A DNA stretch of 30,000 nt from Prodigiosinella aquatilis (GCA_030388725.1 CP128857.1:3049621-3079620), one strand, 5' to 3'. Numbered from the stretch's first letter, positions 26,192 through 29,242 are shown. Notes: generated by a model not told the origin, from the sequence alone. Program-made: numbers and translations.

Positions 26192-26248
26192 TATGCTCTG
26201 AATCTTTAATGCAGAATAAGCTGGATGTATAAGAAAAAGGAGACCAAC

Positions 26249-26821
26249 ATGGCGGGTATTCAGGTTATTGCAGGAAATTTCCCCAAGGGATGGGCAAGTT
26301 TTGGCTTTGGCACTATTGTCTTCGGTAAAAAACCTAAACAAGGCTTCCCTGATGCTATTGTGCTGAACCCGAAGGAAGAGCTGCTATCAATTGAAATTGC
26401 AGGCAGTGAGGTGGAAAGCCGCATAGGTAAGGCCGCAGGCACAGGTATTCTTGGTGGGCTAATATTTGGTGGCGCGGGTTTGGTCATTGGAGGCTTGCTT
26501 GGCGCAGCAGATAAGATAAAGAAGACCATAACATTTAAAGCGGCATTCACGGGAAATAGGCATCTTCTAGCTAAAACGGATGCAAAAACCTTTGTAAAGC
26601 TGCAGTCAATCGCTTTCGATAACGCAAATAATTTGCCTGTAACCGATAAGGTCCAGGTTCAAAATTTGGATGCTCCAGCTGAAAATCCATCGACTAAAGA
26701 ACCAGATTTATCCCCTTCTGTTACTGTAGCCAAGATGACATCTAAAGATAAGCTTGAGCTTGCGGTTGGCTTGGTCGTCATCACCTTAGTTGTCTGGGCA
26801 GTGATTCACTTCTTTTTTTAG
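26249..26821 (+). CDS. Two-TM glycine-zipper membrane protein, unknown function (190 aa)
   Basis: An AAGGAG SD lies 6 nt before the ATG at 26249. The central segment is GTGILGGLIFGGAGLVIGGLLGAA and the C-terminal TM is LELAVGLVVITLVVWAVIHFFF. It starts 57 bp after the repressor stop, with no intervening terminator that I can see. Confidence 0.7.
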   Translation: MAGIQVIAGNFPKGWASFGFGTIVFGKKPKQGFPDAIVLNPKEELLSIEIAGSEVESRIGKAAGTGILGGLIFGGAGLVIGGLLGAADKIKKTITFKAAFTGNRHLLAKTDAKTFVKLQSIAFDNANNLPVTDKVQVQNLDAPAENPSTKEPDLSPSVTVAKMTSKDKLELAVGLVVITLVVWAVIHFFF

Positions 26822-26919
26822 GAAAGTGCTTAAAAACACTTCCAGTTCTAATAGAAGTAAGGGCGATTTAAACCCGCGCTTGAGTATCATTTTTTACGCA
26901 TTAACGGTGTCACTGCTCA

Positions 26920-27195
26920 TCAACAACAGGAGCCTGATAGCAAGTTCGCATGGCTATTGGGATTGGCGCTGATGGTCAGTCTTATTTCTCCAATGAGTAT
27001 TCCTTTCAGCTTATTTTCAGGGAGCATTCGTGGCGTTTTCTCCACCTGCTCAAGCGCGGCCTGCATCTCTCTTATTGCCTCTGCCAGATTGTCGGCATTG
27101 ACGCTAAGTGTGTAGATTTTTGCTGCAGTTTCATACTCATCGCAGGTTATTCCCATTAAGTATGAGTGTTTGGGTTTATTAGTTGCTGAACTCAT
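26920..27195 (-). CDS. Small protein S1 (91 aa), paralogue of 28806..29063
   Basis: MSSATNKPKHSYLMGITCDEYETAAKIYTLSVNADNLAEAIREMQAALEQVEKTPRMLPENKLKGILIGEIRLTISANPNSHANLLSGSCC. It starts 12 nt after the methyltransferase stop. The core is near-identical to S2. Confidence 0.65.
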   Translation of the reverse strand: MSSATNKPKHSYLMGITCDEYETAAKIYTLSVNADNLAEAIREMQAALEQVEKTPRMLPENKLKGILIGEIRLTISANPNSHANLLSGSCC

Positions 27196-27207
27196 GTGTT
27201 TCTCCTT

Positions 27208-27972
27208 TCAGAAATTGCATATCACAAGTTCCTGGCGCGGTGATGACTTACCCGACAGGCTGTAGTTGATGCAAACGGTCTGGATGTTGAGGCCTTTGAA
27301 AGCCTGCCTCATCTCTGGGATATCGTTCACCGATATAATCATTTTCCCTTTGATACTCCGCGCCAGTTCCGACATGTGGATATAGTTCCCTATTGGAAAA
27401 TCCACGCCATAGCCCTCTGTTCCCCAGTACGGTGGATCACAGTAGAACAGCGTATGCGGGCGATCATAACGCTCTATGCACTGGTGCCAGTCCAGATGCT
27501 CTATCAGCGTTCTGGACAGGCGCAGGTGTGCCATCGACAGTTCTTCTTCGATGCGCAGGAGGTTAAAGCGCGGCGCACTTGTGGTGGAAGTTCCGAACGT
27601 GTGATCGGCGACCTTGCCTCCAAACGCCTGTTTCTGAAGGTAGTAGAACCGGGCCGCACGCTGTATATCAGTCAGTGTTTCTTCTGGCGTATCCTGCAAC
27701 CATTTGTAGATCTGGCGACTCACCAGCGCCCATTTAAACTGCCGGACAAACTCTTCCAGATGGTGTTTCACTACCCGGTATAAGTTCACGAGTTCCCCAT
27801 TGATATCGTTGATTACTTCGGTCTTGCTGGGGGTCTTGAGAAAATACAGAGCAGCTGCACCGCTGAATGGCTCTACATAACAGGTATGAGCTGGGAAAAG
27901 CGGCAAAATATGTTTGGCCAGACGGCGTTTACCGCCGATCCATGGAACGATGGGCAAAGATTGTTCTTTCAT
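27208..27972 (-). CDS. DNA N6-adenine methyltransferase, Dam (D12-class) family; no cognate endonuclease nearby
   Basis: 254 aa. Motifs are PWIGGKRRLAKHI, the AdoMet-binding motif YVEPFSGAAALYF and the catalytic DPPY (FYCDPPYWGTEGYG). Confidence 0.85.
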   Translation of the reverse strand: MKEQSLPIVPWIGGKRRLAKHILPLFPAHTCYVEPFSGAAALYFLKTPSKTEVINDINGELVNLYRVVKHHLEEFVRQFKWALVSRQIYKWLQDTPEETLTDIQRAARFYYLQKQAFGGKVADHTFGTSTTSAPRFNLLRIEEELSMAHLRLSRTLIEHLDWHQCIERYDRPHTLFYCDPPYWGTEGYGVDFPIGNYIHMSELARSIKGKMIISVNDIPEMRQAFKGLNIQTVCINYSLSGKSSPRQELVICNF

Positions 27973-28019
27973 TATCCGTAAGCCTTTTACAGTCAGTGAA
28001 AATATGGCAGGCTAGTCCG

Positions 28020-28031
28020 GTCTCGCGAGAC
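28020..28031. other. Perfect 12-bp palindrome GTCTCGCGAGAC in the methyltransferase upstream region
   Basis: Read directly from the sequence. It is nested within an outer inverted pair, CAGTCAG (27990-27996) and CTGACTG (28031-28037). Confidence 0.5.
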
Positions 28032-28059
28032 TGACTGAACCTCGGTTGGCTCACAGCGC

Positions 28060-28166
28060 ATATCTGTGGGTTGATGGCCAGTCCGGTGTGGACGCACCGG
28101 GCTGGTCGTTCTTTCACTGTCAGGATGGGGCTTAGGGATACCCGTATGCTATTAATGCGGTTTAAT
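28060..28166. repeat. U1: copy of the bidirectional upstream region found in front of the lysis operon
   Basis: The blocks ATATCTGTG, GGCTGGTCGTTCTTTCA and CTATTAATGCGGTTTAA align with 29083..29187 (ATATCTGTG, GGCTTGTCGTTCTTTCA, CTATTAACGCTGTTTAA) at a constant offset of ~1021-1023 bp. TTTAAT at 28161-28166 is a -10 candidate 52 nt before the ATG at 28218. Confidence 0.6.
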
Positions 28167-28217
28167 GGATGCAGGGTCAGAGCTGCTGCACTAAATTCAG
28201 GAAGGGTATTTTCTGGT

Positions 28218-28790
28218 ATGGCAAAGTATTACACGGCTGATTCTGCAAATGGCTTACGCCCGTTTTGCGAGATTATTCAGGGAAACTACGAACCTAAAAA
28301 GCAAGAGCTGGCAACTTTCCTCACTCAGATGTACCCAGATGGGCTGTCAAAGCATGGCCACAATTACCTTTATAATCCCGGTCCGCTTATGGATGAAAAG
28401 AACGGTGATGGTCAGGCATTATTAATTGGCCTGGTATTTGAGCTGGTTCGCCGTAGCCATTTCCCGGAGAAACCATCCCGCTACCAGTCGTTATTTGCCT
28501 GTCAGCACATCAGCGAAGTTAAAGAATTCAGAGAGCAGCTGGCTGATGAGCGTGAGGAAGACGAGATCAGAACTGCACCTATCTATGAAGTATTCACCGA
28601 CGAGGCTGTTCATTGTGGCGATATGAGGTTGCTAAGTGATGATTGCCCGGTGCTTGAATTGTATCGCCGGGCATACCTTTACTGGTCTGGAGAACCTGCC
28701 CCAGTCAGGGAAGGTAAGGAAGAAGAAAAGCCGTTCTGGGAACTGCTGATTCCTCTGCCTATATTGATTGGTCGTCAGATATCGGAGTGA
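28218..28790 (+). CDS. Unknown-function protein D (190 aa); possibly DUF2441-like
   Basis: The start is taken at 28218 (MAKYYTADSANGL...). The in-frame upstream extension from 28071 lies in sequence homologous to the non-coding region U2 and is Arg-rich nonsense. Notable stretches are GLSKHGHNYLY and LVFELVRRSHFPEKPSRYQSLFAC. The DUF2441 resemblance is from memory only. Confidence 0.6.
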   Translation: MAKYYTADSANGLRPFCEIIQGNYEPKKQELATFLTQMYPDGLSKHGHNYLYNPGPLMDEKNGDGQALLIGLVFELVRRSHFPEKPSRYQSLFACQHISEVKEFREQLADEREEDEIRTAPIYEVFTDEAVHCGDMRLLSDDCPVLELYRRAYLYWSGEPAPVREGKEEEKPFWELLIPLPILIGRQISE

Positions 28791-28805
28791 GTAATATAAA
28801 AGCTA

Positions 28806-29063
28806 TCAGCTAATTTGCCTCCTTTTTGGGTTGTGGCTAATTGTCAGTTTTATCTGGCCGATAAGCATTCCATTCAGCTTATTTTCAGGGAGCATTCGTG
28901 GCGTTTTCTCCACCTGCTCAAGCGCGGTTTGCATCTCTCTTATTGCCTCTGCAAGATTGTCAGCATTGACGCTGAGGGTGTAAATTTTTGCCGCAGTTTC
29001 ATACTCATCGCAGGTGATCCCCATCAGGCAGAGTGAGCTTGATTTAGCCGTTGCCGAAGTCAT
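28806..29063 (-). CDS. Small protein S2 (85 aa), paralogue of 26920..27195
   Basis: MTSATAKSSSLCLMGITCDEYETAAKIYTLSVNADNLAEAIREMQTALEQVEKTPRMLPENKLNGMLIGQIKLTISHNPKRRQIS. It converges on gene D with only a 15-bp gap. Confidence 0.65.
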   Translation of the reverse strand: MTSATAKSSSLCLMGITCDEYETAAKIYTLSVNADNLAEAIREMQTALEQVEKTPRMLPENKLNGMLIGQIKLTISHNPKRRQIS

Positions 29064-29082
29064 ACGTTTCCCCTTCAGAAAA

Positions 29083-29187
29083 ATATCTGTGTTTTTTGGC
29101 TAGTCAGGTATTGGTGCGCCCGGCTTGTCGTTCTTTCAAAGTAATCATGCGTTTTGCCCCATCGCTTCACTATTAACGCTGTTTAAA
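29083..29187. repeat. U2: bidirectional upstream region between S2 and the holin-like gene (template of U1)
   Basis: See U1 for the alignment. The plus-strand -10 candidate TAAAAT lies at 29184-29189 with no good -35, which fits an activator-dependent promoter. A minus-strand candidate is CTGACT, 16 nt, TATTTT, reading toward S2. Confidence 0.55.
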
Positions 29188-29242
29188 ATCCATTTCCCCC
29201 GACATTTGTGATGCTGTCTCCCACACAACAAGGAGACGCACC

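Follow-up and report, generated by a model that had tools for sequence, protein, structure and literature searches.

We describe here an interval of accessory genes in a transposable prophage of Prodigiosinella aquatilis. The DNA analysed, called the window throughout, is a stretch of 30,000 nucleotides (nt; GCA_030388725.1 CP128857.1:3049621-3079620), and the interval studied (26192-29242) lies between the immunity repressor and the holin gene of a BcepMu-type (Mu-like) prophage. It holds five open reading frames (ORFs), each with a credible ribosome-binding site (RBS): a membrane protein, a Dam methyltransferase, a protein of the DUF2441 family and two related small proteins (small91 and small85). 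Very probably, this interval is a composite accessory region, in which a near-core orphan Dam gene stands between two cargo slots, combined with a portable gene pair and a mosaic origin. Its features and immediate flanks are given below, with positions counted from the first letter of the window; handles such as L001 denote the loci of relatives.

25781..26191, plus strand: immunity repressor (PF07022 Phage_CI_repr, E 1.8e-6; 98.5% identity to the helix-turn-helix (HTH) protein of L001)
26249..26821, plus strand: membrane protein of slot A, 190 amino acids (aa) (phrog_12025, E 3e-102; hydropathy and GxxxG scan)
26920..27195, minus strand: small91 (RBS AGGAGA; 13 nt 3' of Dam, same operon)
27208..27972, minus strand: Dam, D12-class N6-adenine DNA methyltransferase (PF02086, E 2e-27; PADLOC MTase_II PDLC03253, E 6e-114; phrog_56)
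28073..28120, plus strand: terminator-like hairpin, repeat copy D2a with T-rich tail (-30.7 kcal/mol, z -4.1)
28218..28790, plus strand: DUF2441 protein (BC2332-like) of slot B, 190 aa (PF10386, 27.4 bits; phrog_5663, E 7e-58)
28806..29063, minus strand: small85, partner of DUF2441 (convergent with it across a 15-nt gap; a small-family homologue sits at the same position in most DUF2441 loci)
29097..29149, plus strand: hairpin repeat copy D2b, decayed (74% identity to 28075-28127; right edge of the DUF2441-small85 cassette)
29243..29593, plus strand: holin, first gene of the lysis and late operon (PF13272, E 9e-41; phrog_1528)

A first-pass annotation of the sequence had placed five genes between a repressor and a holin, and the ORFs were present where it had put them, with both flanking genes confirmed by their Pfam matches. 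It had further read the five genes as one accessory module. To judge this, we set the interval against its counterparts in relatives (E. coli, Klebsiella phage KP12, Yersinia enterocolitica, Salmonella and IMG/VR) and counted how often each gene occurs among 5,426 complete E. coli genomes. The relatives are collinear in their early and late arms and differ in what the interval contains. Slot A, from the repressor to Dam, contains a membrane protein of the window's type, lipoproteins, a 146-aa protein, a 388-aa protein with an HSDR_N domain, or nothing. Slot B, from Dam to the holin, is either empty or contains DUF2441 with a small gene, a 182-aa protein or minus-strand P-loop proteins (different slot B genes occupy L005, L006 and L067). 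The holin, as a backbone gene, was found in 636 E. coli genomes (705 places) and Dam in 543 (587 places). DUF2441 was found in 33 genomes, the small91 type in three, and the membrane protein in 98, as a full-length close copy in one and a partial match in 97. The five genes are thus not conserved in this order across the family, and the view of the interval as variable accessory cargo stands: unrelated genes take equivalent positions in relatives, and four of the five genes are rare compared with the holin. The single module does not survive the comparison. The interval is not one system because Dam (absent from L067 and L068) is nearly core while the other four genes are rare cargo, and these four make up at least three units that occur separately in other phages.

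The edges of the slot B cassette are sharp, as for a moron: homology to relatives that lack it breaks at 28116 and restarts at 29116. The region works as a moron hotspot of the lambda rexAB/sieB type. It shares with lambda rexAB/sieB, P22 sieA and morons in general a similar position, variable content between collinear phages, terminator-bounded insertion and a membrane protein after the repressor. It differs from them in that no cargo protein is homologous to RexA/B, SieA/B or any other named exclusion protein. In E. coli S12 (L006 5094-5642, plus strand), slot B carries the 182-aa protein, which has two transmembrane (TM) segments, a weak match to the PADLOC '2TM effector' model (E 7.5e-5) and no Pfam match.

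The protein of 190 aa in slot B, which the first-pass annotation could not assign, is a member of DUF2441 and is predicted to belong to the BC2332-like branch of the ADP-ribosyltransferase (ART) fold. Its ORF opens at 28071, and homologues begin at M50, giving the start at 28218. The PF10386 score lies above the gathering cut-off of 25 bits (E 3.6e-6), and all 24 homologues carry the same domain. A crystal structure from this family has been available since 2005. An AlphaFold (AF2) model built from 22 homologues reached a pLDDT (local model confidence) of 86 and a pTM (global model confidence) of 0.80, and the Foldseek check that had been recommended for this protein recovered 2AUA (BC2332 of B. 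cereus) from the PDB at E 6.4e-8, probability 1.00 and a TM-score of 0.57. BC2332 has the same family and fold (profile-to-sequence E 4.8e-7) and the ExxR...PSR...YW motifs in common with the window's protein, and differs from it in sequence (~20% identity). The match to BC2332 names a fold and not an activity. SCOP assigns the 'BC2332-like' group to the ADP-ribosylation superfamily (PMC3000352), Pfam lists DUF2441 in the ART clan (PMC7955679), and a structure-template study matched 2AUA to the active-site residues of diphtheria toxin (PMC3024214). Six residues are invariant across 59 diverse family members (E75, R78, R88, Y155, W156 and E175), and the E/R/R/E constellation among them is consistent with a putative active site.

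A profile search of 1.84 billion representatives returned 1,377 DUF2441 clusters, nearly all of them stand-alone proteins of 165-210 aa. The sole fusion among the top 150 representatives is a metagenomic protein of 572 aa (P0183), with an N-terminal CHAT (caspase-like protease) domain and a C-terminal DUF2441 domain, an architecture reminiscent of conflict-system effectors. Members of the family are common in soil Gordonia phages and in insect symbionts. Distant DUF2441 genes in Gordonia and Streptococcus phages adjoin integrase, immunity or lysogeny modules; their annotated neighbours include no obvious small homologue, the Gordonia locus not having been screened. A literature search for DUF2441, PF10386 and BC2332 returned no functional study, only structure, classification and one transcriptome table. 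The search on BcepMu found nothing relevant, a BFVD fold search gave uncharacterised phage proteins only, and an exact-sequence look-up of the window's DUF2441 gave no record.

What sets the window's DUF2441 gene apart from an isolated orphan is its neighbour. We assembled 50 DUF2441 loci: 13 from GTDB, 31 from IMG/VR and those of E. coli, KP12 and the window (47 screened together), with L065, L068 and L089 checked separately. A small-family homologue lies immediately 3' of DUF2441 on the opposite strand in 41 of the 50, often overlapping its 3' end. The reciprocal search, started from the other small subtype, met DUF2441 in every one of 18 loci. Four kinds of genomic context harbour the pair: the space between Dam and holin in Mu-like phages, a site beside Mor at the end of the early operon, the stretch between the Q antiterminator and the lysis genes in lambdoid prophages, and the vicinity of a cI-like S24 repressor. 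Adjacency is kept down to ~35% identity between DUF2441 proteins. Two small subtypes, themselves ~35% identical, fill the same partner position, and an Enterobacter cloacae protein (P0049) is a natural chimera of the two, with an L002-type N-terminus and a C-terminus of the small85/91 type. The refilling of the partner position by a second subtype, together with the chimera, implies selection for a small-family gene there. Taken as a pattern of conserved neighbourhood, these data identify DUF2441 and the small protein as a portable two-gene unit.

The subtypes themselves are freely combined. Co-variation between DUF2441 subtype and small subtype was looked for and not found, recombination having shuffled both, and the window's own DUF2441 is nearer the L002 type, yet paired with a small85-type gene. 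Small genes also lead a life apart from DUF2441. A Dam-small operon, as in the window, is found in L001 and L004, and 10 of 13 IMG/VR loci seeded from the small85 subtype are Dam-small operons lacking DUF2441. The small gene is unannotated in RefSeq/GenBank in L002 (5447-5770, minus strand; E. coli CFSAN051542), L007 (KP12) and L068 (3988-4371, minus strand; E. coli 503829), and DUF2441 is annotated alone in CFSAN051542 and KP12, where the minus-strand partner ORFs show ~35% identity to small85/small91. Since the small ORF is unannotated in several records, surveys based on annotation miss the pairing.

The small proteins themselves gave no match in Pfam, NCBIfam, PHROGs, PADLOC or PDB sequences. 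The AF2 model for small85 (pLDDT 54) is too poor for a fold search. A HicB-like fold, suspected from the beta-beta-alpha pattern, was rejected: Pfam searched to E 10 gave inconsistent weak matches, and the PDB profile search only a chance AcrIIC4 helix (E 0.02). The core shared by small85 and small91 is under purifying selection, with a ratio of nonsynonymous to synonymous divergence (dN/dS) of 0.13 over 86 pairs.

Natural disruptions are known on both sides of the pair. DUF2441 is broken by insertion or frameshifts next to an intact small gene in L015 (6001-7780), L016 (3953-4528) and L019 (2508-3050). In Pantoea stewartii ATCC 8199 (L012, 6582-9519) the reverse is seen: an IS66-family insertion behind codon 57 breaks the small gene in two, and DUF2441 is intact with all conserved motifs. 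The 57-residue N-terminal part of that split gene could still be made. In a divergent IMG/VR locus (L042 5540-6584, minus strand), DUF2441 converges on a different DNA methyltransferase, apparently split into two ORFs.

The two small genes of the window are indeed paralogues, as had been noted earlier: they align over 203 nt with 88% identity, and their proteins are 78% identical. The claim of an obviously recent duplication is another matter. Their split is an old one: synonymous divergence between them is 0.54 (nonsynonymous 0.035), and each has closer orthologues in other phages. Between 24000 and 28116 the window matches L001 and L055 at 94-95% identity; both carry the repressor, membrane protein, small gene and Dam and lack DUF2441. 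From 27257 to 30000 it is 90.5% identical to a Y. enterocolitica prophage (L065), which has Dam, DUF2441, small85 and holin and no small gene after Dam. Judged by these similarities, the window is a mosaic: two phage lineages recombined, within Dam or at the hairpin, and this united the two small copies. The divergence and the mosaic breakpoints, between an L001-like left arm and a Yersinia-like right arm, thus leave a recent duplication unsupported.

The hairpin at this junction belongs to a 53-nt repeat (28075-28127 and 29097-29149). The first-pass annotation had credited the genes with their own promoter copies, but the core of the repeat is a conserved terminator-like hairpin. The first copy is a strong stem followed by a T-rich tail, and the second has decayed (-10.5 kcal/mol, z -0.4). 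A sigma-70 scan showed no excess of promoters, with eight sites against 5.3 expected, and no known RNA family was found in the intergenic regions. Across 12 relatives the hairpin retains all 21 base pairs, two through compensatory changes, with a loop that varies; at the homologous sites in L001-L015 the stem is preserved by G-U pairs and compensatory changes. Only the small85-type lineage (the window, L012, L013 and L014) has the repeat on both sides of the cassette. Slot B opens right 3' of the hairpin, because homology to cassette-less relatives ends at 28116. The hairpin may shield the lysis operon from transcripts that run rightward past the end of the repressor operon, and it marks the point of cargo insertion.

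On the other side of Dam, slot A contains a protein described earlier as a two-TM glycine-zipper protein, and the scans bear this out: hydrophobic segments span residues 62-90 (a GxxxG-rich glycine zipper) and 168-190 (a C-terminal TM segment). The ORF opens at 26225, with ATG 26249 favoured by the PHROG match and the RBS. The gene follows the repressor after 57 nt on the same strand, with no hairpin or terminator predicted in the gap. This spacing makes it likely that the membrane gene is co-transcribed with the repressor in the lysogen. Most relatives have envelope proteins in slot A, including lipoproteins of 175 or 312 aa that start MRK..LSGC or MRK..LVGC and are unrelated to the window's protein. 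A membrane-anchored product adjoining and co-oriented with the repressor, with lipoproteins in the same slot of relatives, is what would be looked for in a superinfection exclusion (Sie) gene; no homology to a characterised Sie protein was found. All homologues are annotated 'hypothetical', phrog_12025 is a family of unknown function, and tblastn of the phage collection gave no match to the protein in sequenced phages. Homologues P0054-P0065 carry the precomputed Pfam label PF27000. One homologue, from Burkholderia (56% identity across 69% of the query), has a precomputed SHOCT label (PF09851), so that the N-terminal part of the membrane protein is common to Burkholderia.

The identification of a Dam-family methyltransferase stands on PF02086 (96.9 bits, cut-off 22) and on motifs, with DPPY at 179-182 and PFSG at 35-38. 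The protein scores below the models for E. coli Dam equivalogs (TIGR00571, 109.8 bits against a cut-off of 114.85; NF008152, 68 against 441). In PADLOC it matches MTase_II, oMTase and, weakly, PD-Lambda-5_B. No restriction gene lies beside it in the window, where its neighbours are small91 and DUF2441; it is an orphan methylase, close to a core gene of the family. With other orphan Dams (T4 Dam, P1 Dmt and Stx-phage Dam) it shares the D12 class, the DPPY motif, the lack of a cognate nuclease in the window and conservation within its phage family. It differs from them in falling short of the NCBIfam Dam equivalog cut-off and in being often co-operonic with a small protein in relatives. In the Salmonella relative L089, the 388-aa HSDR_N nuclease-domain gene of slot A (2797-3963, plus strand) converges on Dam (4024-4794, minus strand), and the two could be a restriction-modification-like pair; no PADLOC model matched the HSDR_N-domain protein, and the match of Dam to PD-Lambda-5_B was only weak. 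For the closest E. coli relative (isolate AF22; L001 5706-6470) RefSeq lists Dam as a pseudogene because of an internal stop, and an insertion splits the gene in L009 (3031-5757).

As for the surroundings, the window right of ~17.5 kb is the prophage, one end of which is placed, approximately, near that position. The repressor, whose start would lie near 25826 by analogy with the closest relative's RefSeq annotation, diverges from a minus-strand early operon comprising a B/ExeA-like gene, a DDE transposase (22121-23914), a DUF3102-like gene, an IclR-HTH gene and a Ner-like gene (25556-25744). The left ~17 kb is host chromosome, with LysR, fadK-like, ETF, AraC, acyl-CoA dehydrogenase, CoA transferase, aroD and MFS transporter genes; G+C falls to 35-45% at 8-17 kb.

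What might this cargo do? The account that explains most of the above is of independent morons together with an effector/partner conflict module in a composite region, and we put its chances at about even. Under this account the membrane protein would be expressed in the lysogen and act at the envelope, for instance in superinfection exclusion, and Dam would methylate the phage's own DNA, serving anti-restriction or regulation. From its fold, DUF2441 could be an effector that uses NAD or transfers ADP-ribosyl groups, with the small protein as its cognate neutraliser or regulator and convergent transcription adding antisense control of the pair. The two genes would then form a toxin/antidote-like conflict module for abortive infection or phage-phage exclusion, and the Dam-linked small91 might be an antidote-only gene. 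Of these steps, an effector/antidote function for the pair is a tentative proposal to which we give roughly one chance in three. Its most elaborate form is less likely again: a previously undescribed phage-borne conflict system with an ART-fold effector, a small inhibitor, convergent balance and antidote-only copies in sibling phages that disarm a resident prophage's effector. A conflict-system flavour comes from the CHAT-DUF2441 fusion, the accessory positions in Gordonia and Streptococcus phages and the 2TM-effector-like protein in a relative's slot B.

In outline the pair resembles the ART-fold toxin modules DarT-DarG, RES-Xre (ParST, MbcTA) and CmdTAC, which likewise join a small cytoplasmic protein of the ART superfamily to a second gene dedicated to it and are carried by mobile elements or prophages. 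In detail it departs from them. There is no sequence match to the DarT, RES or CmdT models, and the partner is not a macrodomain (as in DarG), an Xre-HTH protein or a SecB-like chaperone and has no recognised antitoxin domain. The genes are convergent instead of operonic, and DUF2441 is sometimes alone. The marks of a type II toxin-antitoxin operon are missing in the same way. The two genes converge, in the window (DUF2441 plus, small85 minus) as in each of the 41 paired loci; the supposed toxin occurs without its partner in Salmonella, seven divergent loci and L012; and the small protein matches no DNA-binding or neutralising domain. With the phage enzymes T4 Alt, ModA and ModB, DUF2441 has in common membership of the ART superfamily. 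Those are enzymes of virulent phages with a known R-S-E motif and host targets, whereas DUF2441 lies at accessory sites of temperate phages and has no detectable sequence similarity to them. DUF2441 and the small protein are probably best described as an effector-plus-partner module among phage accessory genes, based on an ART-fold family that is uncharacterised.

Several observations weigh against the effector/partner account. Beyond 2AUA, Foldseek gave only weak matches to the catalytic subunits of cholera, pertussis and LT toxins (E ~1, probability 0.1-0.2). H46 and E124 are invariant in close homologues and not across the whole family. The protein is acidic (isoelectric point, pI, 4.9), unlike ART toxins that target nucleic acids. 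The small protein showed no recognisable fold or DNA-binding domain in the Pfam, PDB-profile and AF2 checks, and convergent genes are atypical of protein toxin-antitoxin pairs. DUF2441 persists without a complete partner: it is intact in the Salmonella lineage (L089), where a P-loop gene fragment takes the partner position, seven divergent loci have no small gene, and it has outlived the split small gene of P. stewartii. Lysogenic expression of the membrane protein is deduced from spacing alone. Among known defence models (PADLOC-DB v2) only Dam finds a match; DUF2441, the small proteins and the membrane protein match no family, so that a defence role rests on location and fold. Of the first-pass proposal of a defence, exclusion or anti-defence module, the variable cargo is borne out, the single module is not, and the function has no PADLOC match beyond Dam behind it.

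Other explanations have to be weighed against the same evidence. DUF2441 could be a lytic-cycle enzyme for host takeover or anti-defence, like T4 Alt, ModA and ModB, that modifies a host protein or depletes a signalling nucleotide, with the small protein as its regulator or specificity factor. The window's gene is co-oriented with the late operon just 5' of the holin, the lambdoid pair lies between Q and the lysis genes in a late-transcribed region, the acidic pI suggests a protein or small-molecule target, and tolerance of DUF2441 alone in several lineages fits a non-toxic enzyme better than a toxin. Yet an intact terminator-like hairpin stands directly 5' of DUF2441, the late promoter region lies 3' of the cassette, the lambdoid gene is antisense to late transcription, other phages keep DUF2441 within lysogeny modules, and its presence in 33 genomes against 636 for the holin marks it as dispensable for lytic growth. 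We consider a takeover enzyme unlikely, though worth keeping in mind. A shade less probable is that all five genes are unlinked morons, DUF2441 and the small gene having been captured once as a cassette and lying too close for recombination to part them. That the genes occur singly (small with Dam only, DUF2441 without small) and that their subtypes do not co-vary would fit such hitch-hiking. It sits poorly with an adjacency that persists to ~35% DUF2441 identity in four contexts of both Mu-like and lambdoid phages, with the complete reciprocal search and with the refilled partner position, which implies selection.

Two further readings are much weaker. Some ART-fold enzymes modify DNA, among them DarT, pierisin and Scabin, which ADP-ribosylate it. 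Dam, DUF2441 and the small gene might on that model be a DNA-modification module analogous to Mu's Dam-controlled com-mom, in which DUF2441 modifies bases to evade restriction and the small protein controls expression. About 20 Mu-like loci have Dam as the immediate neighbour, many phages carry the small gene in one operon with Dam, and the DUF2441 of L042 converges on another DNA methyltransferase. But a pI of 4.9 ill suits a DNA-binding enzyme, the pair occurs without a methylase in the Mor-adjacent, Q-lysis and cI contexts, L067 and L068 have no Dam at all, and the small protein shows no Com-like zinc-finger or RNA-binding signature, which together make the idea improbable. Least credible of all is a lysogenic-conversion or virulence toxin against eukaryotic cells. 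In Stx phages stx sits between Q and the lysis genes, where lambdoid DUF2441 also lies, and the Foldseek matches that follow 2AUA are toxin subunits; for BC2332 itself, the structural-genomics authors suggested that it might be a toxin (PMC3024214). Those matches are at E ~1, however, no signal peptide, B subunit or secretion-system context was found, and the family occurs widely in soil Gordonia phages and insect symbionts.

A cargo island is by itself ordinary for temperate phages. Even if no function were to emerge, the interval is a mapped example of two cargo slots flanking a near-core Dam in BcepMu-like prophages of the Enterobacteriaceae. For DUF2441, a family with a known structure, the pairing offers a specific, testable lead into its function. 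Should the effector/antidote reading of the pair prove true, an ART-fold module would be added to phage-encoded immunity and counter-immunity, and the orphan small genes of sibling phages would be explained. If antidote-only copies do disarm the effectors of resident prophages, this would amount to an arms race among members of one transposable-phage family.

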